Part shown: piece by piece, positions 33,571-60,645 of the stretch | How positions within the stretch are numbered: the first letter of the stretch is position 1 | Layout: every line of letters starts with the position of its first letter | Virus record (IMG/VR): IMGVR_UViG_3300042539_001740 | Direction: 5' to 3' (one strand) | DNA: 64,000 nt | DNA from: a virus | Taxonomy: Duplodnaviria > Caudoviricetes | The notes under the pieces: generated by a model | Seen by the model: only the letters and a program-made list of their open reading frames with translations | Told to the model about the DNA's origin: nothing | Databases searched by the model: none | Program-made: the position numbers and the translations under genes

Positions 33571-33603
33571 AAAAAACCCCACCTAAAAAGTGGGGTTTAA
33601 TTT
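33571..33603. terminator. Bidirectional terminator between the convergent operons
   Basis: Stem aaaccccac / gtggggttt with A and T runs on both flanks. Confidence 0.85.
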
Positions 33604-34202
33604 TACCATAAATTTTCTTGTTTCATATATCCTAACACACAACAATAAGCATCACTCATATCAAAATTCTCTTTCTTAAGAGTATTGTTTTTTGTGTAAC
33701 CCCAATTTATTTGAGGTTCTCTTTTGGCTACTTGTTCCCAAATAATTTGTTTTTTGTCACAATCCTTTGGTAATCCACCAAACAAAACAAACTTCCCTTT
33801 ACCATTATCTTTCACTAACCATGGGAAAGCGTTTTTTCTTGAGTTGTATGTTGATATGTATTCAGGAACAATACCTAAAACATCATATATCTCTTTGGAA
33901 ATAAGAGTATTATATCTCATTAAAGTTTGTATAGTATAAACATTGTTACTATTTAAAAGTGGCTCTTCGATAACAACTTTTTTGATGTTTAATTCATCAT
34001 ACCCCTCTAATTTAGTTTTGAAAATTTCGGTCTTAAGAAATAATTCCTTCATTTTATTTTCTTCTTTAGGTTTGGTTACTGGTGAGATATGAGTTAATTC
34101 CAATAATTCCTTACTTTCTATGTCAAACAATGCCCAACCAATTGTTTTCGTAGAAATATCTAACCCCAAAACCTTTGGGGATTGTTTCATTTTATCATTC
34201 AT
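33603..34202 (-). CDS. ruvC: RuvC-like Holliday junction resolvase
   Basis: VLGLDISTKTIGWA, VVIEEP and DMSDAY acidic catalytic positions. Confidence 0.8.
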   Translation of the reverse strand: MNDKMKQSPKVLGLDISTKTIGWALFDIESKELLELTHISPVTKPKEENKMKELFLKTEIFKTKLEGYDELNIKKVVIEEPLLNSNNVYTIQTLMRYNTLISKEIYDVLGIVPEYISTYNSRKNAFPWLVKDNGKGKFVLFGGLPKDCDKKQIIWEQVAKREPQINWGYTKNNTLKKENFDMSDAYCCVLGYMKQENLW

Positions 34203-34205
34203 AAA

Positions 34206-36626
34206 TTAAATATCTAATTTGATTACAAACTGTTGAATCCCCGTTCTCGGATATGGAGATTGTAGCTTTGAAACAATCATAAGATTTTTGTCTGAATCGT
34301 AAAGACCAATTTCAGTTACGAATGGTTGGACTGAAGTATTCCACGATGGATTTGAGGAGTATTGGAATTCTGATTGACCTAATACTATCTGATACCTCAT
34401 TTCATAAATTGTGGCTTGAATGTCAGTTTCTATATTACCATAAAAATAATATTCATCACCAAAATTTAATTGAGTTCCTGAAAAACCTGCCGTAGTTATA
34501 TCAATATAATCACTTAAGTCATAAAGTGGTGCATTATCATATAAGTCCTGAGTTATAACAAACGTATTACCTGTTAAACCTGATTGTGTTAAATACCCAT
34601 TATTACTTGTACCACTAAGTTGGAAATTATAGTCAATTATTCTCCATTGTGATGGTTCTGGTCTACCATTACCCTCAACCTTTTGACAAATAATTTCAAA
34701 TGAATCAGCAATAAAACCTGACGTAATATCACAACCTACAGAACATATACTTGGATTAGATGATAAACAATTAAATTCATCACCAAATCTTACACTAACA
34801 TTTTGAGAATTCAAAGGATTACAAGTTATGTTAGGTCCTTGTATTACTTGATAATAATTAGAATGTAAAGAATTAGTATAGGCTGAAGAGTTTGATAATC
34901 GATATGTAACGTGTAAATATTCAGTTTCGCCAGTCAGAATTCCCTCAACAGATTCGTTATCCAAACCACAAATATTTGGTGTAATTAAAGCAACCTTTGG
35001 CGCTGGTAATGTCCAGTTTCTATTGGCTTTATATGACATTGCGGCAATAATCTCTTCATCATCAATAATGATTAGTTTGTGGTCAGGAAATACCTTACCA
35101 ATTCTGTTTGGTATTCCCGCAATCGGTGTTGTATTTGGGTTTGGATTAGTATCCCATAGGTGATAATATCTTATACCTGGATTATTCATATCTTGGTTTT
35201 GATTTGACTCCAAGTAATGAACAGTAAATAATGGTATAATTAAATCATCAAAACCAGGAGGGTCAACATAAAAAGTTTGTCCATAACAACATTCAGGGTT
35301 TTTATGCCACATTAACCACGGAATGTGTAATTTGAAATTCCTTGCTTCTCCTATTGTATCATCAGGTTCAGTAATATCGTGAGGTTCCAAGGCGAATTTT
35401 TCACCATAGAAAAAATCAATCGTATTATTAGTATAATGAATAATAGCAATGGCCTTTTGTTCTTCAGGTGTAACTACAACCTTTTCATCAAAAGAGTTAT
35501 AATAATAAGTTGAATCAGTATCGGTTTGTCCACTACTTGAAGCGTAACCAAAATATTCTTTAGACCCCAAATAATCAATAGAACCAAATTTAGTATAATC
35601 TTTGTGTGTTGAGGAATTTATACCTGCTGGACTTTCTGACCAAGGAATATTCATATTCCAAATTTTAACATCAAATTGGTCAGTATAACAAACCGATTCA
35701 AAATTGATAACATCATATGGGAAGTGTTGAGATGGTGTTACACTATCATAAATCTCAGTCATTCCTGATGGATATACAATTACACGAGCATAACAATCAC
35801 CACTTAAATATGTAAAATCAGGTGTTGACCTATCCAAAGTTATATTATCCAAACAAACATCAACAATTCGATATGTTAAAATCGTATAACAACTTGACAT
35901 ATCCACAACACAAGTTGCAGTATAACTCGGTAAACACGGGCCACAATTAGTCACAGGACAAGTTGTGGTTGTAGTTGTTGTTGGAGGTGATGGTGGACTA
36001 CAAGCGTCAGTTGTTGTTGTTGTCGTTACTGGTAAGGTAGTTGTAGTAGTTGTTGCAGTGAAACAATTACAGTCATTAACACCATTACCATCATAAATTA
36101 TCGTTATAAAATCACCAATTTGATAGTTCCTAACAAAATCATTGTTACATGTAATTGCCGAAACCACAATCAAATTTGAACCATTCAAACCACTCATTTG
36201 TATTACATAGTTAGATGTTAGTGCGTAGTCACCTGTGGTTATTGCACTCCACTCTATGTTTGAACCTGATGTTGTACCTAAGAAAAACCCCCTTGGTGAT
36301 GCTGTATTATACACTGGACTTACAATCGATTGCATAAATGGGATTCCATATGTATTTCCGTTGTTACCATCCACGTAGTAAGGGTATTTAATGTTTTCCT
36401 TATTTGATTGAGGAACACCTGCCGAATTTTGAGCATTGAAACTTGGCTCTAATACTCTACTATTATATTGGTTATAACTTGTTTGAGGAATAGCATTATA
36501 CGAAACTTCACTATCACCAATTTGAAAATAACTTATATTAAAATTACCTTGAGAAATTTTTTGTCTCCCAGTATCGGTAATCCTTGTGTTTATTAAACCT
36601 GCTGTGTTTTTTAAAATATATCCCAT
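34206..36626 (-). CDS. Baseplate/tail-fibre-associated structural protein with a poly-Thr linker
   Basis: N-terminal TDTGRQKI...YFQIGDSEVSY, C-terminal VTEIGLYDSDKNLMIVSKL, and the internal tract TATTTTTTLPVTTTTTT...PPTTTTTTT. Confidence 0.7.
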   Translation of the reverse strand: MGYILKNTAGLINTRITDTGRQKISQGNFNISYFQIGDSEVSYNAIPQTSYNQYNSRVLEPSFNAQNSAGVPQSNKENIKYPYYVDGNNGNTYGIPFMQSIVSPVYNTASPRGFFLGTTSGSNIEWSAITTGDYALTSNYVIQMSGLNGSNLIVVSAITCNNDFVRNYQIGDFITIIYDGNGVNDCNCFTATTTTTTLPVTTTTTTDACSPPSPPTTTTTTTCPVTNCGPCLPSYTATCVVDMSSCYTILTYRIVDVCLDNITLDRSTPDFTYLSGDCYARVIVYPSGMTEIYDSVTPSQHFPYDVINFESVCYTDQFDVKIWNMNIPWSESPAGINSSTHKDYTKFGSIDYLGSKEYFGYASSSGQTDTDSTYYYNSFDEKVVVTPEEQKAIAIIHYTNNTIDFFYGEKFALEPHDITEPDDTIGEARNFKLHIPWLMWHKNPECCYGQTFYVDPPGFDDLIIPLFTVHYLESNQNQDMNNPGIRYYHLWDTNPNPNTTPIAGIPNRIGKVFPDHKLIIIDDEEIIAAMSYKANRNWTLPAPKVALITPNICGLDNESVEGILTGETEYLHVTYRLSNSSAYTNSLHSNYYQVIQGPNITCNPLNSQNVSVRFGDEFNCLSSNPSICSVGCDITSGFIADSFEIICQKVEGNGRPEPSQWRIIDYNFQLSGTSNNGYLTQSGLTGNTFVITQDLYDNAPLYDLSDYIDITTAGFSGTQLNFGDEYYFYGNIETDIQATIYEMRYQIVLGQSEFQYSSNPSWNTSVQPFVTEIGLYDSDKNLMIVSKLQSPYPRTGIQQFVIKLDI

Positions 36627-36650
36627 AAAGATAAATATCGAAAATTGATT

Positions 36651-37376
36651 TTATGTGACGATAATGTTACAACAATAACATCCTGATATAGAAACATTAC
36701 TTAAAGTGTAATTTTCAACACTTTGACCTAAATAACAAGCGACATCTTGGTTTTTAGTTGTAGTTGTATATGTTGTTAATATTAAAGTATCTGAATTTGT
36801 ATAAGTGAGATTGTTCCATCCCTCAGTGTACGAAGTGATGTAAACATTTTGATTTTGACAACCTGGTGTTGGATTATAAGTTGTACTCAAAGTCGAACTT
36901 GAGTATGAAATAGATTGTGTGACACTATTTTTAACCAAGTCACTCGTTGACGTTGTTGTAGAAGTACCTGAGAATGGAGAAGATTTTGAAGTATTTAAAT
37001 GTACCAAATTAAATGTTATAGTTACACCACTTGGTAAACTTGGAAACACTGAAATAGTTGTATCGTATTTTTTTGTTAATGTTGTATTGTTATTAACTAT
37101 TGTTGTTGACGAAGTATTAATTGTAACGTTGTATGTTATTGAATTATTCGATGTGTTTAGAATAACAGAATTTGTTGATGTTTCACCCGACACGTCTTTT
37201 ACAATAACAGAGTATTGACCAGGACATAAATTACTAAATAATGGTGTATTAAAATAGGTTAAACCATTATTAATTGAGTAGGAATATGGTGGTGTTCCAT
37301 TGTAACCTTGAATTGCAAAAGAACCATCACATCCACAAATTGTATCATTTATATTAACAGTTGAAGTTAAAATCAT
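36651..37376 (-). CDS. Ser/Thr-rich structural protein with one N-terminal SprB repeat
   Basis: ICGCDGS...NGTPPYSYSINNG...LCPGQYSVIVKD. Confidence 0.7.
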   Translation of the reverse strand: MILTSTVNINDTICGCDGSFAIQGYNGTPPYSYSINNGLTYFNTPLFSNLCPGQYSVIVKDVSGETSTNSVILNTSNNSITYNVTINTSSTTIVNNNTTLTKKYDTTISVFPSLPSGVTITFNLVHLNTSKSSPFSGTSTTTSTSDLVKNSVTQSISYSSSTLSTTYNPTPGCQNQNVYITSYTEGWNNLTYTNSDTLILTTYTTTTKNQDVACYLGQSVENYTLSNVSISGCYCCNIIVT

Positions 37377-37379
37377 ATA

Positions 37380-39575
37380 TTAGCTTGTTGAAGTAAATGT
37401 GTATGTACTTGTTTTAGTACCCCCAGCAACTAAATTGGCTGTTAATGTAACTAAATAAGTATGTGTATTACCAATCGGAGGACACGGGCCTTCCCATCCT
37501 TGAGTATTTGAAGCACCTGGGTCACCTGTGGTTGGATTTATTGTCACACCACCAGGCCAAGGTATTGATGAACTAACCTGAGTGGTTGTATTTGGTATAT
37601 TTGTTACATCCCAATGAATATATCCCGGATTGTCTAAATCTTCACAATAAATTTCAAAACTACTAATGTCTGAACTTGTTAAACCCCCCAACAAATACCA
37701 TTTAAACCAAGGAGTTTCATTAGAACCACCACAAGCCCCTGAAAATTTAAATGTTGTTGGTATGTCACTATCATCTAACGCCCACCAAGCATTAATTGTT
37801 AAAGATAAAAAGTCAGAACAAGCACCTATTGATGTTATAGTTTGTTGTTGAGGACTTGGAGGATTAACAGACATTGTCCATGCTCCTGAAGTTGGTGAAC
37901 TTGGATATCCTTTGAATATAGTCCAAGTAGATGTACCTAAAGCTGTATTTATAATACTACTTGTTGATGCCGATAACGACCATACTCCCGAAGTACCAAC
38001 AGATGGGTTAAAATATACAATTTCATTACCAGAATTTGATATCCAAGATGTTTGGCCATTTATATAAGTGTTATATTGGAAAGTAATTTGAGTTGTGGTT
38101 GGAGTAGGTGTACCGCCAGTCCTTTTGGTTGTCGTAATTGACATACAGAAAATATTTTCTAAATAGTTTGGAACTGGAGGTAAAGTTGTTGTTGATGTTG
38201 TAGTCGTTGTAAAACCAGGTACTGTACAAGTTGTTGTGAAAGTATAGTCACCATAATAGTCACTAACAACGGCAGTATAACTACCAGTAGATAGACCATT
38301 TATTGTCTTACCACCTATTAGTGTAGCACCATTAGGAAAAGTCCATTCTATTGTGTATGGAGGAACACCACCAACGATACTTAATGTTATTGAACCATTT
38401 GAACTATCAGGGTTTCCAGTAATATTTGTTACATTACAGATTACGTTTAATGGTTGTATAGTGAGTACGTTACAATCATTTACTGGTATATAACCCGAGT
38501 TTATATATGACCTAGTTGTTGTAGTTGTCGTTGAAGTGGTAGGTGTTACACCAGTACAAGGTGTTCTTAAAACTTGTGAACAAAAAGGTGAACCCGAACA
38601 TGTTACTAATGTAAATCCACTCGAACAAGTTAACCCAGTAACACCTGAATTATCAAAAGTAGTACCCGTTAAATCTCTTGTGGTGAATACGGTTACTAAG
38701 GTTAATGCTGATTGGGAAGTAATTGCACTCAAAGACGAAACACTACCTGAATAAATTTCAGCACCGAAACCACCAGTAGCTCCTGTACTTGAATTTAGAC
38801 CTTCCATTTGAATATAATTCGGTCCTGCTGGTAAAGTTATTGGGAAAACTGACCAAGTTGAAAAAGTTTGACCATGTGTTCTATAAGCTGAAAATGAATT
38901 GTACTGATTACCGAAAGTAAAACCACTTGTATTAGCTTCAACTAATAACACACCATTTAATTTAAATCTGTAAAAATCGTCAGCACCCATTCCCAAATAA
39001 TAGGTTTGAGATGTTGGATTATTGAAACAAGCAGTGAAACCAATCCATTCATTTGCTGGAGAAAAAGGTGATGTTGTTGTTGGCCAAACACCTGAGTAAT
39101 TTAATCTACCTGGTGAATTGGGTAGAAAAGTTGTTGATTTATTACCCCATACTGTATTAGAATTAGCACATGGCCAAATTCTAGGTCCGTGAGTTGTTGC
39201 ACTTAATGAACAACTTTCTAATAAACCACTTGGAGAAACAATACTTTGACCAGCACCCGGGCCTCCCAAAATATAATTTAAAGTTCTATCCTTCAAACTT
39301 TTGGTAGTATCAGAATCTATAAAAAATGATGTGTTGAATAAGGGTGTCCCATTTTTTGTTTGAGAACCAGTTGTAATTCCTGTCAGTATAATTGGAAACG
39401 TCAAATTAGTTATGTCTTCATAAAAAATTGTCCCCATATATCCGTTGGTAGAAAACTGACCTGCTTTCAAAACAACAAGAGTTGAGGCAGAACCACTGGT
39501 TGATGCGGTTACTTCTCTTATACACTCAGAATTATCAGGTGCTGCGGTATAACCAGATGGACAAAAACAACTCAT
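37380..39575 (-). CDS. Mosaic adhesin-like protein: PA14-like, poly-Thr, SprB repeat, C-terminal PEBP/YbhB-like domain
   Basis: GADDFYRFKLNG...ITLPAGPNYIQME; GGVPPYTIEW...GLSTGSY; EDLD...IHWDVTNIP...WEGPCPPIGNTHTY. Confidence 0.7.
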   Translation of the reverse strand: MSCFCPSGYTAAPDNSECIREVTASTSGSASTLVVLKAGQFSTNGYMGTIFYEDITNLTFPIILTGITTGSQTKNGTPLFNTSFFIDSDTTKSLKDRTLNYILGGPGAGQSIVSPSGLLESCSLSATTHGPRIWPCANSNTVWGNKSTTFLPNSPGRLNYSGVWPTTTSPFSPANEWIGFTACFNNPTSQTYYLGMGADDFYRFKLNGVLLVEANTSGFTFGNQYNSFSAYRTHGQTFSTWSVFPITLPAGPNYIQMEGLNSSTGATGGFGAEIYSGSVSSLSAITSQSALTLVTVFTTRDLTGTTFDNSGVTGLTCSSGFTLVTCSGSPFCSQVLRTPCTGVTPTTSTTTTTTRSYINSGYIPVNDCNVLTIQPLNVICNVTNITGNPDSSNGSITLSIVGGVPPYTIEWTFPNGATLIGGKTINGLSTGSYTAVVSDYYGDYTFTTTCTVPGFTTTTTSTTTLPPVPNYLENIFCMSITTTKRTGGTPTPTTTQITFQYNTYINGQTSWISNSGNEIVYFNPSVGTSGVWSLSASTSSIINTALGTSTWTIFKGYPSSPTSGAWTMSVNPPSPQQQTITSIGACSDFLSLTINAWWALDDSDIPTTFKFSGACGGSNETPWFKWYLLGGLTSSDISSFEIYCEDLDNPGYIHWDVTNIPNTTTQVSSSIPWPGGVTINPTTGDPGASNTQGWEGPCPPIGNTHTYLVTLTANLVAGGTKTSTYTFTSTS

Positions 39576-39601
39576 TAATTAGATTTTAAATATAAATAGA
39601 T

Positions 39602-40579
39602 TTATTGATTGTTTTGAACAATCTTTTTCATTATTTCGATGTATTTTATTGTTGAACTATTTTTCTCCACGTAATCAAAAAAATTAATGTTGGTTTTCAA
39701 TTTATCTAAAGGACTTACATTAATAAATTCACCTTTATAAAATTTTGAAGATTTCAAGTCATCGGTAACACCTGCCATATGTAGTATTGAATGTTGATTA
39801 TAAATCTCCATTGAATCTGTTGCCCACGAAAAACTTAATTCATCTGATATTTTAGTTTCATAATTATGTAACCATAAATTCCACAATAAAGACCACATTT
39901 CTGCTGTCCAAAATTGTATTTCACCAGGACTTATCGGAAATCTTTTTTGGTAACTCAACATTTGGTCATAAAGTGGTGTACAATCTTCATAAATTTTTTT
40001 CCATAGTTCTTTTGTCGTGTTTTTCAACAAATACTGACCACCACCTGAGTTAAGTTGGTTTTCTTTTATAGTATTAACATCAATTCCTATAATATCACTC
40101 ATTTCTCTCAAAAGTTGACCTTTTTGTGAGTTTGGATGTCTTCCTTCATATCTTTTACAACAATCCATAATGTAGTTGTAACCAATATAACCGATTGTAT
40201 CTGATAAATAATTTATTTCATCTTTGAGTAATGAATTGAAATCAGGTAATTTTCTGAATACAATATCAGCATCGTGTAAAAAAATATTTCTACTTAAAAT
40301 CGGAAACTCCTCAATTAATTTGTAAACTAAAAATGGTTTTATGTTAGGTATATAATGTTTTTGTTTTCTATCATCTAAATAATGATGAACATTAATTCCT
40401 AAATCTTTTAAATTTAAGGATTCATCACTAGGTTTGGTATTACCATAAACCATTGCAAATACAACGTGTATTTGATTTGGATTGATTCCCATCTCAATAA
40501 AGTTGTGAACATAAACTCTTACTTGCCAATGAAAGTAAGGAACATCTGGTTGTGCTGATACAAAAATTAAATCCTCCAT
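39602..40579 (-). CDS. GT-A glycosyltransferase resembling HPAT (GT95) / SERGT1 (GT96) protein O-glycosyltransferases
   Basis: DVPYFHWQVRV, YIPNIKPF, FLHDADIVFRKLP (DxD), WTAEMW, ILHMAG and FYKGEF occur in the same order as the HPAT motifs. Confidence 0.75.
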   Translation of the reverse strand: MEDLIFVSAQPDVPYFHWQVRVYVHNFIEMGINPNQIHVVFAMVYGNTKPSDESLNLKDLGINVHHYLDDRKQKHYIPNIKPFLVYKLIEEFPILSRNIFLHDADIVFRKLPDFNSLLKDEINYLSDTIGYIGYNYIMDCCKRYEGRHPNSQKGQLLREMSDIIGIDVNTIKENQLNSGGGQYLLKNTTKELWKKIYEDCTPLYDQMLSYQKRFPISPGEIQFWTAEMWSLLWNLWLHNYETKISDELSFSWATDSMEIYNQHSILHMAGVTDDLKSSKFYKGEFINVSPLDKLKTNINFFDYVEKNSSTIKYIEIMKKIVQNNQ

Positions 40580-40608
40580 AATACAAAATTATAGAGGATT
40601 ATTTGACT

Positions 40609-41823
40609 TTATAAATAATATAAAACATCCGCAGCCCCAATAAAAGTAGCATTTGCACCTAATGGTGTTATACATAACCACATTTCATCTAAAGTACCAT
40701 TAACATTTGAACCAACTCTTATTTGATTGTCATCTAATTTAGTGGTCGTTAAAGCAGATGTACCAGCCTGACCAATTAATGATGTCATTACGTGTCCTGG
40801 TGTTGTTATTGTTGGAGTTCCATCACTTAAAGAATATTGAAAAGGTGAGTTAGGTATATCAGTCCAACTTGGCGTTGAAGATAATGTTGGATTGAATTCT
40901 ATAGTCAACAAGTAATTATCGTTTGAAGTGTTTAAGATACTGATTGTGTCAAACTGAGATGTTACACCAATGTAATTTTCTTTTAATCTATAGCCAATAT
41001 ATGGGTATTTTGTACCTGAGGTGGCCATCGTAGTTGTTGCGGTATGTGGAATTGAAACCGTAGAATACAAACCATTCAATGCACCTTCTGTAGATACTTG
41101 AGAACAAATCATATCAAAATAACCTGAACCAACACCAACTTGTCTTATTTCATATCTAATTGGTTGATTCGGTGAAGACATATATACTGTTGGAATATTG
41201 TTAGCAGCAGTATAATCAATAAAATATATTGTTTGACCTGATAAAACCATACCAAATCTCACTCTACCTACACCTAACCATTGATAATCTACAGTCATTA
41301 GATTTGTTTCAGCCCAATCAAAATTATTTGGGTCGAATTCGGTTGAGTTCCAAGTTGTTGAGTCAGCACTAAAAGTACAAGAACCACTTAAGAATATATT
41401 AAATGTTATTGCGCTAGTAACACCATTACTTTCCAAAAAGTAACCATCAAATACTGAATTATATGGTGACCCTGTTGTTGATTGAAAACACCCAACTCTT
41501 TTAATAACATTGGATTCAATTTGAAAATTACTAAAACTTCCCTCAAACAACTGACTTTTACCTGGTTGGTAAATTGGATGTGTTTTAGTTTTACGAATAA
41601 CTAAATCATTGTTAGCTGATGTTGACATTCTAACTCTTGCGTATTGTTGACTAAATACGGATGTTGCAGTACCAGCAGTTACCTCACTAACCTGAAGTGG
41701 ATTTTTATCAAATGTATGTTTAATATCCAAAAGATTTTGGACTGCGGCAGTCCTTAATCTACCGAAAGCGTCTAAGTTAGGTCCATCTGAATATTTTATT
41801 GAGTTATTAAAAATGTATGCCAT
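40609..41823 (-). CDS. Phage virion structural protein of the DAFGRLR type (possible lectin-like beta-sandwich)
   Basis: DAFGRLR, YQPGKS, YQWLGVGRVRFG and PIRYEI motifs, which I recognise from other large-phage structural proteins. Confidence 0.6.
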   Translation of the reverse strand: MAYIFNNSIKYSDGPNLDAFGRLRTAAVQNLLDIKHTFDKNPLQVSEVTAGTATSVFSQQYARVRMSTSANNDLVIRKTKTHPIYQPGKSQLFEGSFSNFQIESNVIKRVGCFQSTTGSPYNSVFDGYFLESNGVTSAITFNIFLSGSCTFSADSTTWNSTEFDPNNFDWAETNLMTVDYQWLGVGRVRFGMVLSGQTIYFIDYTAANNIPTVYMSSPNQPIRYEIRQVGVGSGYFDMICSQVSTEGALNGLYSTVSIPHTATTTMATSGTKYPYIGYRLKENYIGVTSQFDTISILNTSNDNYLLTIEFNPTLSSTPSWTDIPNSPFQYSLSDGTPTITTPGHVMTSLIGQAGTSALTTTKLDDNQIRVGSNVNGTLDEMWLCITPLGANATFIGAADVLYYL

Positions 41824-41824
41824 A

Positions 41825-42640
41825 TTATATTATCCACCAATTATTATTTCTTGCCACAAATGAAAGTGACATATAGTTTATGTTCATATCAACGTAAGCG
41901 TTCCCATCAATTGTACCCGAAGATGGTGTTATTCTTATTCTATAAGTACTTGCATAACCACCTTCGTCTTTGATTGTTAATTTATATCCTTGAATACCTG
42001 AGGGTGAAAATAAAGTGACATCAACATTACCTGAGTAACTTATTCCATTATAACTATAACCTGTAACTAATGTAATAGCTGAAGTTGATATACCAGTTGT
42101 TGATTCGGTGGAAGTACCTACACCTATAACATTAAAAGTACCACCAGTATTATTTACAAGTGTCAATGTTCCCGCCGAAAATGTACCACCAGTAACCCTT
42201 ATGTCCGTTGGTAAATTTTGATATGTCGTTGCTGATATTGTTCCACTACTAGTTGTTCCCGTGACTGATAAATTTCCATTAATTGTTAAACCAGTCATAG
42301 TATTAACATTTACAGAAAATGAACTTCCATCACTTTCAGATAAAGTAAATGTATTATTATTGTAAGTAAAAGCGGTAACACTTGTGTCTGTAAATCCTGT
42401 AACAAATCCTGAAACTGAAAAAGTACCACCAGAACTATTAGTAAATGTTATTACACCTGTTGAGGAATTATAAGTACCACCTGTAATGTATACCGATTGT
42501 ACTAAATTAGTTACTTGTTGGATTGTTGCTTTATATGATGAACCTGCAGGATTTTGCGATGTATCACTGGTATTAACAATATGTATTAAATCAGTGAATG
42601 TTACTCCTGTTGCTAAAGTTCTATCGGTAAGAAATGCCAT
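41825..42640 (-). CDS. Short tail-fibre-like protein with a gp9/gp10-like C-terminal domain
   Basis: TGGT(Y/F) repeats; C-terminal LTIKDEGG...ITPSSGTIDG...NYMSLSFV...WWII. Confidence 0.65.
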   Translation of the reverse strand: MAFLTDRTLATGVTFTDLIHIVNTSDTSQNPAGSSYKATIQQVTNLVQSVYITGGTYNSSTGVITFTNSSGGTFSVSGFVTGFTDTSVTAFTYNNNTFTLSESDGSSFSVNVNTMTGLTINGNLSVTGTTSSGTISATTYQNLPTDIRVTGGTFSAGTLTLVNNTGGTFNVIGVGTSTESTTGISTSAITLVTGYSYNGISYSGNVDVTLFSPSGIQGYKLTIKDEGGYASTYRIRITPSSGTIDGNAYVDMNINYMSLSFVARNNNWWII

Positions 42641-42661
42641 TTTATTTTTTTATATAAATAG

Positions 42662-42961
42662 TTAGGACATAAAGAAATATGGAACACCATCCATAAAAAA
42701 GAAATCTTGTAAATCCATAAAGTCCTTATTATCATCACTACAATATAAAACTTTGAATTTCTCACAACCATCACTTGTAATTACCTTAATACCCAAAGCT
42801 GGTGCAGTTTTGAATTGTTGTGGAAGTGCAAATAAATTATTTAAAGGTACGTTTGTATCAATGTACGCAACCAAAACACATTGAAGGCCATATACATCAC
42901 AAATATAAACTGTATAGGGAAAATTAAGACCAAAAATGGATGAAAATTCTAAAGTAGTCAT
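42662..42961 (-). CDS. Small Cys-containing beta-domain protein (99 aa)
   Basis: PYTVYICD...C, VITSDGCE; similar to 44969-45184; has its own TATTTAT. Confidence 0.7.
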   Translation of the reverse strand: MTTLEFSSIFGLNFPYTVYICDVYGLQCVLVAYIDTNVPLNNLFALPQQFKTAPALGIKVITSDGCEKFKVLYCSDDNKDFMDLQDFFFMDGVPYFFMS

Positions 42962-43001
42962 TTGAATAGTTACTTTAGATAAATACTACATTTTATATAA
43001 A

Positions 43002-44963
43002 CTAAAATCCACCATCAATCAAAGTACCTCCTTTACCTGTATCACCAATAGTTGAAATACAAATAGTACAATTTTCGAAGAAACTTACACCTGAAGTTGG
43101 AAAACTGTTTCCTGACAAATAAGTTGAAGTTGAACCCAAAGGTAACGTTGGATATGTGGTTGAATAAGAAATAAATTTCCAACATTGTCCATTGTATGGT
43201 GAACTTGATAAACTGAATACTTGATTTGGAGTATATGTCGGACCTGGTAAAGTTTGTATTACATATTGAGTTGGGTCAGAACATCTCTGATACAAATAAT
43301 AACCAACTGCTTGTGAAGACGTTGGAGTAGGTGTTAATGTTGGAGTGATGGATGGGGTTGGTGTAATTGTAGGGGTTGGGGTTATATCAGGAGTACAAAC
43401 ACTATCACAACTTGACAAACCAGTGATACTTCCCAAAGGACCATCAACCAAATCTATTTGGTCAACACCGATTACGTCTAATTCTATACCTAAGAACACA
43501 ACACACTTTGAAACACCATTTATATTTGCCTTGAATATATCTGATTGTGTTAAAGTACCACCTGATGGTAATATTATTGGATTTACAGCATAATATAAAC
43601 TACCATTTGAACAATCAACGAACTTCTTACTCGAAGGACATTCTAATATTCCAATTACTGGATTAAAGGTAACTGTTCCTGAGATATTACAAGGTCTTGT
43701 CACTTCAGGTGTCATTGTAGGTGTTACACTTATTGTTGGTGTTGGAGTTGGTGTATAACCAGTAATTGTTGCATCCAATGCTCTACCACCACAAGGGTCA
43801 CTTGGTGTTGGTGTTGGAGTTATTGTTGGTGTTAAAGAGATTGTAGGTGTTACACTCGGAGTAGGAGTAACTTCACAATCAAAAACCGCAGTGAAATCTA
43901 AAACTGAACAATTTACAGTTGGTGTTGGTGTTGGTGTTGGACATGCTCCACTGAAAACATAATCATCACATAAATCGGGACAACTTGAGTTACAAGGATA
44001 TGGTCCTTCAAGTAAACAAGAGCCACCCAACGTAGTCGATAAACACCAAGTACCTCCAGTTGTAAAATATATAAAGTCACCATTCGTTGTTCCAGACCAA
44101 TATGTTTCACTATTATATGTACCAGCAGACAAGTAGGTGTCATCATAACCTAAACCTGTGTCACTTATACAATATATGGGTGGACAACCCAAACAAGAAA
44201 TTAATTCACTAAAAAGATTAATTGAAGAACCTGTTAAATCCGATAAACAATTTAAAGCATTATCAATAGTTGTTGTAGTAAATGATGGACAATAACTTGT
44301 TGTTAATGAACCAGCACCCCTTGGAACTGATGTGGTTAAATTTTCTATTTCCCAATCATTAGTGTCCCAATACATTACCATAAAGTCACCATTGATATTT
44401 GTAAACGTATAATATTGTCTGCCATTTATAATACCATCATTGTATAATCCTCTATAATAATAACCACCTGAATATTCGATTCCAAGTAATAGACAACATT
44501 CATCTATATTACATTGATATGTATTTGTACAATCAACACAATCTGTAAAAATAACTGGAATTGCAAAATCCATTTGTAATGCTGTCACATATGGATATGA
44601 TGCTGCGTCACCATCGTCTGTAATGTTATGACATCCATAACTAACGTTAGTACTATTAGTAAAAGCTGCAAAGTAGACATAATATGACGCACCTGAAAAA
44701 CCTGATAACGAATTAGGAATTTCGACAGAAAATGAATCAACAGAACAACATGCAGAAAAATCGTAGGTTAAATCTAAAGTACCTTGTAATTGTACATCCA
44801 AACCCACATAAGTTGAACCAGTAACGGATTCATCAGCTGAAATATAAAATGTTTGACTTGGTGGTATATTAATTATAATATTACTACCTTGAGAATCTAT
44901 GAATGTGAATCCACTATATAATGTAGAACCTGTGTTTGCAACAAAAAAGCCGTAATTAGCCAT
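43002..44963 (-). CDS. Cys-rich fibre/adhesin-like protein with four (Thr-Pro)n tracts
   Basis: About 32 Cys in 653 aa by my count; PTPTPTPT, TPTPSVTPTISLTPTITPTPTP and similar tracts. Confidence 0.7.
   Translation of the reverse strand: MANYGFFVANTGSTLYSGFTFIDSQGSNIIINIPPSQTFYISADESVTGSTYVGLDVQLQGTLDLTYDFSACCSVDSFSVEIPNSLSGFSGASYYVYFAAFTNSTNVSYGCHNITDDGDAASYPYVTALQMDFAIPVIFTDCVDCTNTYQCNIDECCLLLGIEYSGGYYYRGLYNDGIINGRQYYTFTNINGDFMVMYWDTNDWEIENLTTSVPRGAGSLTTSYCPSFTTTTIDNALNCLSDLTGSSINLFSELISCLGCPPIYCISDTGLGYDDTYLSAGTYNSETYWSGTTNGDFIYFTTGGTWCLSTTLGGSCLLEGPYPCNSSCPDLCDDYVFSGACPTPTPTPTVNCSVLDFTAVFDCEVTPTPSVTPTISLTPTITPTPTPSDPCGGRALDATITGYTPTPTPTISVTPTMTPEVTRPCNISGTVTFNPVIGILECPSSKKFVDCSNGSLYYAVNPIILPSGGTLTQSDIFKANINGVSKCVVFLGIELDVIGVDQIDLVDGPLGSITGLSSCDSVCTPDITPTPTITPTPSITPTLTPTPTSSQAVGYYLYQRCSDPTQYVIQTLPGPTYTPNQVFSLSSSPYNGQCWKFISYSTTYPTLPLGSTSTYLSGNSFPTSGVSFFENCTICISTIGDTGKGGTLIDGGF
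43319..43942 (-). repeat. Mucin-like Thr-Pro codon repeats
   Basis: Degenerate (acacca)n tracts at about 43319-43394, 43715-43760, 43801-43870 and 43919-43942. Confidence 0.85.
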
Positions 44964-44968
44964 TATTA

Positions 44969-45184
44969 TTATACTACTAAATTGGAGATTATTTCACAAT
45001 TATTATCGTCAACAACCTTAAGATTATATGATAATTGACCATCCAAAATGAATGGGACATCAAAAGAATATGTTCCACCAGTTATGGTTGAAACATATAC
45101 ACAAGTTGTAAGGGGGTCATCACATAAATAAATGTCGAAGGGTGTAGCCCCAGTTACTCCATTTATTGTTATCGTTGTTGGCAT
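44969..45184 (-). CDS. Small Cys-containing beta-domain protein (71 aa)
   Basis: PFDIYLCD...C, VVDDNNCE; first gene of the minus-strand block, with TATTTAT at 45203-45209. Confidence 0.7.
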   Translation of the reverse strand: MPTTITINGVTGATPFDIYLCDDPLTTCVYVSTITGGTYSFDVPFILDGQLSYNLKVVDDNNCEIISNLVV

Positions 45185-60039: not shown

Positions 60040-60220
60040 TATAGATACTTTATTTCTTTTTTTTAATGTATTTTCTATTCTACTCGTTCTTAGAGTAATC
60101 TATAGATTTATAAGTGCCCTATTATCCAATCCTCCAACTAGGTTGATTATGAATAATAGGGAACTTATATTCTTTGGAATCTCATTAGCTTACACAATAA
60201 CCTATTTCATAAAATTATGA
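60032..60220 (+). CDS. Small two-helix membrane protein
   Basis: Two hydrophobic segments in 62 aa. Confidence 0.65.
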   Translation: MFNIDTLFLFFNVFSILLVLRVIYRFISALLSNPPTRLIMNNRELIFFGISLAYTITYFIKL

Positions 60221-60645
60221 GTTTATACCAAGAATTTTCAGCCTTATTACCATACCTCCAATCAGTAAGAAAATTAAAGAATTATTTATCGTTTGATGTT
60301 AGTTTTCCCACAACATGGAAACTACCCAAAAAGTTTGTTGAAGAGGATAAAATAATGGAACAACAATCACCCATTGCTAATGAAAGATTGTTTTCCTATG
60401 TCACTGAGATTGATGAGGATAGTGTTCAGAAAGTACACTTGAACATTAAAAATATTATAAAATACAATCTTGAACGTGAGGAAAAAGACAGGTTATTTGA
60501 AACAAAAGTGGAGGAACTAAAAAAATTATTTGAAAAACAGAACTTAGATAAATTAAAGGGATTATATTTTGACATTAGTGAACCAACAACAAAAAAAATA
60601 GAGTTAGAAGACGATGAAGAACAAATCACTACAACAACAACTTGA
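60217..60645 (+). CDS. Hypothetical protein (142 aa)
   Basis: ATGA-coupled ORF. Confidence 0.7.
   Translation: MSLYQEFSALLPYLQSVRKLKNYLSFDVSFPTTWKLPKKFVEEDKIMEQQSPIANERLFSYVTEIDEDSVQKVHLNIKNIIKYNLEREEKDRLFETKVEELKKLFEKQNLDKLKGLYFDISEPTTKKIELEDDEEQITTTTT

Follow-up and report, generated by a model that had tools for sequence, protein, structure and literature searches.

The closest described counterparts of the locus studied here come from plants and algae and from mycobacteriophages. Extensins are repetitive hydroxy-amino-acid peptides on which SERGT1 and the HPAT enzymes start O-glycosylation (PMC4908140, PMC8012813). For the mycobacteriophages Che8 (gp108-110), Corndog (gp38) and Myrna, PMC12363180, citing Freeman et al. 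2023, describes virion glycosylation by phage-encoded glycosyltransferases (GTs). Here, we analyzed a window of 64,000 nt (the whole stretch of DNA under study) from the 194.5-kb IMG/VR virus record IMGVR_UViG_3300042539_001740, which is 66% complete and has a G+C content of ~31%. A ten-gene block on the minus strand (33603-45184) spans a candidate GT of 325 aa together with proteins carrying threonine-rich tracts. A preliminary description of this DNA had proposed that the phage uses a GT95/GT96-like enzyme to O-glycosylate Thr, Ser or hydroxyproline in the linkers of its own fibres. Our sequence comparisons support the modification of its own Thr-rich linkers in a refined form: the tracts that go with the enzyme are poly-Thr, and neither (Thr-Pro)n nor hydroxyproline takes that place.

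Co-occurrence of the enzyme gene and poly-Thr

The lineage of the window was sampled as 56 loci with orthologues of the 404-aa gene next to the GT (70-97% identity), 17 of which carry the GT. In ten GT-less records, including two 100% complete genomes (294 and 304 kb), no family member was found anywhere, with a positive control of 4/4 for this whole-record search. In counts that ignore phylogeny, poly-Thr was present at 11/17 loci with the GT vs 1/39 without it, and (Thr-Pro)n tracts at 15/17 vs 14/39. Orthologues of the 806-aa protein had runs of at least five threonines in 12 of 15 GT-positive phages vs none of the 16 GT-less ones, where (Thr-Pro)n fills the same Cys-flanked linker. Orthologues of the 653-aa protein persist in GT-less relatives, as do (Thr-Pro)n tracts. 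Because (Thr-Pro)n is also found at 14 of the 39 GT-less loci, the 653-aa protein is not a well-supported substrate, and its tracts are probably plain linkers, present whether or not the phage has the GT.

A second, independent group gave the same picture for poly-Thr. Among the phiFL1-like Enterococcus phages, sampled as IMG/VR homologues of the phiFL1A tail-protein core, the major tail protein bears a poly-Thr tail in 12/12 loci with the GT gene next door, and a tract occurs in 0/14 GT-less loci (113.6 kb, all six frames; Fisher p 1e-7 with kinship ignored). A second strict tract follows ~2 kb upstream in 10 of the 12 GT-positive loci; in phiFL1A it forms the C-terminus of the major head protein gp45. 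When whole records were scanned, five GT-less genomes of 90-100% completeness held one T5-coding run in total, and five GT-positive relatives held 7-11 per genome, at two places ~2 kb apart. GT-positive and GT-less genomes alternate across the identity tiers of the tail protein, implying that gene and tracts were gained or lost jointly more than once. The co-occurrence of the GT with Thr/Pro tracts anticipated in the preliminary description was strongly borne out in two independent phage groups, the association being with poly-Thr and not with (Thr-Pro)n.

The neighborhood extends to unrelated phages. Directly upstream of the GT lies the poly-Thr-tailed major tail protein in phiFL1A, the small gp072 in Lactobacillus phage Iacchus (~80 of its 129 residues are Thr-rich repeats) and a 428-aa protein with an internal poly-Thr tract in Chryseobacterium phage MA9V-3. 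When 36 diverse loci, several of them near-duplicates, were scanned in six frames, 25 had co-oriented poly-Thr no more than 2.5 kb upstream of the gene; in two exceptions, poly-Thr runs lie ~40 kb from the GT on the same contig.

A further arrangement was seen in Enterococcus phage VPE25 (LT615366.1). Here, a 52-codon open frame without its own start codon (L003:5710-5868) encodes three poly-Thr runs in the annotated 'intergenic' gap between the capsid gene (end at L003:5737) and the GT (5986). This frame is -1 relative to the major capsid gene, with whose final 28 nt it overlaps, and GCA AAG TAA stands at the junction. The sequence suggests that a -1 frameshift would give a poly-Thr-tailed capsid protein in a fraction of the subunits, beside the GT. 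The major tail protein of VPE25 has a Thr-rich end too (TTTD plus T10).

Predicted fold and family of the enzyme

The open reading frame (ORF) at 39602-40579 was confirmed as a 325-aa translation on the minus strand with the FLHDADIVF sequence containing the DxD motif. Residues 6-320 match positions 3-291 (of 293) of the profile phrog_4417, whose function is unannotated (E 6.5e-70). A Pfam search of the protein returned no GT family, GT8 and GT24 included, and the HPAT profile PF23452 gave no match at E <= 1. Among 56 family members only 2 reached an E of 0.09 with PF23452, which is sub-threshold, and the same profile had no match in the 194.5-kb genome or in any control genome. Sequence searches against the PDB, with the single sequence and with a profile, gave nothing meaningful. 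The family comprises at least 836 representative clusters at 50% identity (exhaustive search, E <= 0.001), with at least 593 confirmed IMG/VR matches and 77 cultured-phage records found by tblastn.

Conservation and the AlphaFold2 model were derived from an alignment of 56 diverse family members (A1). Invariant or nearly invariant positions are P11, Y15, W18, Y76, D103, D105, Q222, W224, M228, W229, H267, A269, G270, F280 and K282; D105, H267 and K282 are invariant and D103 nearly so. All six motifs listed for GT95 and GT96 in the preliminary description fall on such columns. The model consists of a single globular GT-A domain (pLDDT 97.5, pTM 0.94), which begins at residue 5 and takes up the full 325-residue protein, with no hydrophobic N-terminal segment or anchor. 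Given this predicted structure and the conserved DxD motif, the protein can confidently be assigned as a soluble GT-A nucleotide-sugar glycosyltransferase.

In a Foldseek search of Swiss-Prot models, a comparison of predicted models on both sides, Arabidopsis SERGT1 (GT96) ranked top (E 1.6e-10, TM 0.64). It was followed by seven HPAT/RDN/PLENTY/NOD3 proteins of GT95 at ranks 2-8 (TM 0.59-0.63), clearly ahead of GT8 and GT24 proteins, and Chlamydomonas SGT1 came at rank 10. The GT95/GT96 resemblance noted earlier held, with SERGT1 and HPATs as the leading folds among these models. Among AlphaFold DB clusters, own family members aside, 'HPAT-like domain' proteins of algae and protists were the commonest named matches. 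The fold search of the PDB gave at least 309 matches at E <= 0.001, of which the top 50 listed are all glycosyltransferases and no chain is named GT95 or GT96. The best solved structures were the UGGT catalytic domain, glycogenin, LARGE1, WbbM and LgtC (E 3e-7 to 2e-5, TM ~0.38-0.46).

Some homologues are fused to PF11397 (GlcNAc-T), protein O-FucT, GT6 and F5/8-C domains. Because these long homologues are joined to other GT domains, the glycosylation role of the family is confirmed, and because long forms occur on bacterial and environmental contigs in glycan clusters, the family is not restricted to phages. Giant multi-GT proteins were seen with O-FucT, PF11397 and F5/8-C domains (1369 aa), with PF11397 (1019 aa) and with GT6 (992 aa). 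The records concerned are P0173 (L221, the bacterial metagenome-assembled genome GCA_039208045.1), P0170 (L222) and P0264; P0173 and P0170 adjoin GT_PLOD/Nucleotid_trans, sulfotransferase and epimerase genes. In Enterococcus phage phiFL2B (GQ478085.1, 23978-24832), the homologue gp49 is labelled 'major tail protein'. This is probably a mis-annotation, since the sister phage phiFL1A encodes its true major tail protein one gene upstream.

The gene block and its genomic context

The features of the block are given in Table 1. The positions of the Thr/Pro tracts in the 806-, 731- and 653-aa proteins agreed with those of the preliminary description within a few bases, and the 241-aa protein carries a further T/S tract. 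Tract-bearing ORFs number 8 of 202 in the 194.5-kb genome, and four of the eight lie inside the block. In a six-frame scan of the genome, 5 of 7 runs of at least five threonines belong to the large 731- and 806-aa ORFs a short way downstream of the GT; the Thr tracts of the block exceed chance. As their codons are mixed ACN, the tracts are not DNA-level simple repeats and are kept at the protein level.

Table 1 Features of the minus-strand block, genes in order of transcription
Feature	Position	Strand	Remarks
71-aa ORF, first gene of the block	44969..45184	-	Weak Kre9/KNH Ig-like match, Pfam E 3e-4, below cut-off
653-aa Cys-rich protein	43002..44963	-	Four (Thr-Pro)n linkers (43314-43940); translation and tract scan
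99-aa protein and 271-aa protein	41825..42961	-	271-aa protein T 18.5%, S 13.3%, without strict tract; co-oriented, no putative role
404-aa virion structural protein, phrog_1645	40609..41823	-	Directly upstream of GT, without tract; conserved anchor gene of the block
325-aa soluble GT-A glycosyltransferase, phrog_4417	39602..40579	-	DxD at D103/D105; proposed poly-Thr O-glycosyltransferase
731-aa Thr/Ser-rich, Cys-containing protein	37380..39575	-	Directly downstream of GT; poly-Thr 38514-38546, 38184-38210; candidate acceptor
241-aa protein	36651..37376	-	T 18.7%, S 14.9%; T/S tract 36942-36965; possible acceptor
806-aa protein	34206..36626	-	Cys-flanked linker holds three T6-T7 runs (35961-36053); acceptor with the strongest support in the window
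199-aa RuvC-like Holliday-junction resolvase, last gene of the block	33603..34202	-	phrog_159, E 3.8e-8
TATTTAT motif	40611..40617	-	Ends 31 nt upstream of GT start codon; possible late-promoter element

The preliminary description had placed the enzyme in a structural block with fibre genes over 33603-45184. The resolvase gene at its end is not structural and stands outside the glycosylation system, and within the remainder only the 404-aa neighbor is homologous to annotated virion proteins, its phrog_1645 homologues in cyanomyoviruses being labelled 'virion structural protein'; the tract-bearing proteins are putative ones. Neither megablast of the 11.6-kb block against GenBank phages nor a tblastn search of cultured phages with the 806-, 731- and 653-aa proteins gave a match. 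The 731-aa protein has a C-terminal phosphatidylethanolamine-binding-protein (PEBP) domain at residues ~602-713 (Pfam E 1e-11, phrog_5139), together with a weak PA14-like match and a cEGF-like N-terminus, a domain set unusual for a phage structural protein.

The TATTTAT motif was present at the described place upstream of the GT. It occurs 36 times in the window against 45 expected, so that there is no overall over-representation. In a scan reaching up to 60 nt, 10 of 46 gene starts have the motif 4-42 nt upstream, among them those of six of the ten block genes (minus strand 36631, 39592, 40611, 42654, 42979 and 45203; plus strand 10661, 17881, 27094 and 57658). The motif may be a late-promoter element common to the GT and its putative substrates.

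Outside the block, the genome has only two runs of at least five threonines. A 142-aa charged protein (window 60217-60645, plus strand) ends in TTTTT at its very C-terminus, and a 223-aa charged, Lys/Glu-rich protein (G000:C1:173866-174537, minus strand) contains T7 in its interior. These two proteins, too, could be tagged substrates. In addition, a second minus-strand cluster with weak minor-tail and tail-fibre-assembly matches (G000:C1:103626-115102) encodes 417-, 260- and 321-aa proteins with (Thr-Pro)n linkers and without poly-Thr, which fits (Thr-Pro)n being a general linker in this phage. The genome record also encodes baseplate, ribonucleotide reductase (RNR), helicase and primase.

Proposed function, competing explanations and comparison with known systems

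Starting from the established fold, conserved catalytic motif and gene-level co-occurrence, we consider it likely that the GT works in the cytoplasm, where it O-glycosylates threonines of poly-Thr runs in virion proteins of its own phage. A soluble, metal-dependent GT-A enzyme (DxD plus His) would be expressed alongside the late structural genes during infection and move a sugar from a host nucleotide sugar to the Thr hydroxyls of these runs before or during virion assembly. By analogy with the nearest folds, the transfer is probably retaining. The acceptors in the window's phage would be the poly-Thr linkers of the 806- and 731-aa proteins, and perhaps of the 241-aa protein, encoded just downstream of the enzyme; in small siphophages, members of the same family would act on C-terminal poly-Thr tails of the major capsid and tail-tube proteins. 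Poly-Thr would be a portable tag and the enzyme its writer, and exposed regions of the particle would end up in a mucin-like sleeve of glycans. In the window's phage, the GT may, more speculatively, prime glycans that other enzymes, such as those of the glycan island described below, extend. Acceptor, sugar, linkage and benefit are inferred; the benefit might be shielding, stiffness, protease resistance or adhesion.

Hydroxyproline, the other acceptor considered in the preliminary description, was dropped because no PF13640 prolyl hydroxylase was found in the 194.5-kb genome (66% complete), and (Thr-Pro)n is independent of the GT. A complex prediction of the GT with residues 186-232 of the 806-aa protein, which hold the poly-Thr linker, scored 0.02 vs a mark of 0.34 and counts neither way. 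The fold predicted for the 806-aa protein from 18 orthologues (pLDDT 41) is too poor to show exposure of the poly-Thr region.

Several observations weigh against poly-Thr glycosylation. Three GT-positive genotypes of the window's lineage have an 806-aa orthologue without poly-Thr, the GT-less locus L177 has a T6 run, and runs of at least seven threonines are absent from G005, a GT-positive genome of 100% completeness. The co-occurrence counts take no account of kinship, and such statistics are inflated by the short distance between the GT and the poly-Thr genes, which lets them be inherited together as a single recombination module. As the 806-, 731- and 653-aa proteins have no cultured-phage match, there is no recognizable fibre homology and their fibre identity is only putative. 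The kinship of the GT to GT95/GT96 is remote, at the level of predicted fold and motifs and not a Pfam HPAT match by sequence, and family members in non-phage glycan clusters may act on glycans and not on peptides. Finally, a large glycan-biosynthesis island outside the window (G000:C1 ~123500-145200, loci L153 and L154) shows that the phage has other glycosylation business, the target of which could be a virion glycan, the host surface or other. The island holds a dual GT2 protein (633 aa), more GT2 domains, three GT11-like genes, a GT17-like gene, two DegT-type aminotransferases, an RmlD/epimerase-GT2 fusion, an 854-aa epimerase plus C-methyltransferase, DUF5672 and DUF3431, interspersed with PhoH and NAD synthase genes.

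One alternative is that the GT targets a non-protein acceptor, such as a host cell-wall polysaccharide or teichoic acid, a lipid-linked glycan or the phage DNA, and that the link to poly-Thr reflects co-inheritance in a mobile structural-gene module. DNA or the host surface are common targets of phage GTs (PMC12619734). The second-tier folds include the lipopolysaccharide (LPS) glycosyltransferases RfaJ/RfaI (GT8) and LgtC, and both the homologues in bacterial and environmental glycan clusters and the island in the genome would suit such a role. However, the poly-Thr partners are non-homologous across unrelated phages (tail tube, capsid, small Thr-rich-repeat protein, fibre-like protein), so that module linkage cannot explain tracts arising repeatedly beside the gene, and in the two genomes mentioned above the tracts stand ~40 kb away. 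Moreover, the protein is soluble and has no membrane partner, and in the temperate phage phiFL1A its gene is flanked by those of the major tail protein and the tail chaperones, which is not a moron or lysogeny position, in a genome with no annotated DNA-hypermodification genes. Altogether, we consider a non-protein acceptor unlikely. Readings as a DNA-modification or lysogenic-conversion enzyme were also judged unlikely from the gene position and the association with poly-Thr.

The enzyme might instead elongate glycans on virion glycoproteins that another phage or host enzyme has begun. In favor of this, some members are fused to other GT domains, which implies that their glycans are built in several steps, and the window's genome has at least ten further GT-like or sugar-modifying enzymes. 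phiFL1A and its relatives, however, keep poly-Thr tails with this GT as the only candidate. As there is no other GT candidate in the phiFL1A genome, the enzyme must be the initiating one there; furthermore, SERGT1 and the HPATs, which have the closest folds, initiate O-glycosylation of peptides (PMC4908140, PMC8012813). An elongating role is for these reasons rather improbable. A protein that is catalytically irrelevant to the tracts, be it an assembly factor or virion component binding poly-Thr tails, or a neighbor of tracts that are unrelated flexible linkers, could be read from the phiFL2B label and from the (Thr-Pro)n linkers that exist without the gene. Yet this label is unsupported, the true tail protein being the upstream gene, and poly-Thr, unlike (Thr-Pro)n, is almost absent without the gene; catalysis is argued for by the DxD, His and Lys residues, which are invariant or nearly so in a family of at least 836 clusters at 50% identity. 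We give very little credence to this last explanation.

Beyond glycosylation of poly-Thr in single phages, we lean slightly towards a broader view in which poly-Thr is a portable tag for a single soluble GT95/96-like writer, forming a two-part system spread horizontally among phages. Any exposed virion protein gaining T5-T10, whether capsid, tail tube, decoration domain or fibre linker, would turn mucin-like in the cytoplasm, and the system would have reached large aquatic phages as well as those of Bacillota and Bacteroidota. If so, virion O-glycosylation would be common and not a mycobacteriophage curiosity, and the plant and algal extensin-glycosylating families would gain a prokaryotic-virus relative. 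Poly-Thr glycosylation itself would give a function to a large family of phage proteins that lacks annotation. Virion glycosylation would then reach beyond a few mycobacteriophages to Enterococcus, Staphylococcus, Lactobacillus, Lactococcus, Clostridium and Chryseobacterium phages and to abundant large environmental phages. Glycosylated virion proteins could also be predicted by a simple rule, the presence of a poly-Thr run together with this gene. Glycan coats alter antibody recognition in the mycobacteriophage case, and could affect protease resistance, mucus adherence and host-range interactions, which would be relevant for therapeutic Enterococcus and Staphylococcus phages.

Compared with known systems, the nearest predicted folds are those of plant and algal SERGT1/SGT1 (GT96) and HPAT1-3/RDN/PLENTY (GT95), which take ranks 1-8 and 10 (TM 0.52-0.64), and the ordered motifs listed for these families fall on invariant or nearly invariant columns of the phage family. 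Like them, the phage enzyme would start O-glycosylation on repetitive hydroxy-amino-acid peptides. In contrast to them, it shares only ~12-14% identity, has no match to Pfam HPAT PF23452, and its inferred acceptor is poly-Thr instead of Ser-Hyp4 or Hyp. Plant GT95/GT96 enzymes are Golgi/ER membrane proteins, whereas the phage GT is predicted to be soluble and cytoplasmic, without a membrane anchor or secretory pathway. The retaining GT-A enzymes of GT8, GT24 and GT6 (glycogenin, LgtC, LARGE1, UGGT, ABO transferases) comprise the best solved-structure matches and share the DxD and downstream His/Lys pattern that Mn-dependent GT-A enzymes typically show; for glycogenin and UGGT, the substrates are likewise proteins. 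They differ in their TM scores (~0.38-0.46), 9-13% identity and the lack of a Pfam GT8 or GT24 match, and the phage family clusters with GT95/96 models instead. Eukaryotic mucin-type and GT60-type glycosylation offers an analogy in the dense O-glycosylation of Thr-rich disordered tracts, and some family members are fused to PF11397, but it relies on another GT family in another cellular compartment.

Mycobacteriophages likewise use their own cytoplasmic GTs to modify capsid and tail-tube subunits, as summarized in PMC12363180, and the phiFL1-like tags sit at the C-termini of the same two proteins. The Che8 system differs in its enzymes (GT25-like gp110, and gp108 as a GT2 plus methyltransferase), in capsid and tail proteins without a poly-Thr run, and in GT genes that lie at the far end of the genome instead of next to those of the substrates. 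Homology to the mycobacteriophage virion GTs was rejected, as hhalign of the phage family profile against Che8 gp110 gave a probability of 0.05% and no Mycobacterium phage is among the 77 tblastn matches. In the literature covered, from which subscription journals are mostly absent, no description was found of a phrog_4417-type family, of an HPAT/SERGT-like phage enzyme or of a poly-Thr/GT pairing in phages. The novelty claimed in the preliminary description accordingly holds for the pairing of poly-Thr with a GT95/96-like enzyme, and not for phage virion glycosylation as such, which is known from mycobacteriophages (PMC12363180). What is new is the enzyme family and its proposed, predictable acceptor tag, which together suggest a widespread, uncharacterized way for phages to glycosylate their own particles.

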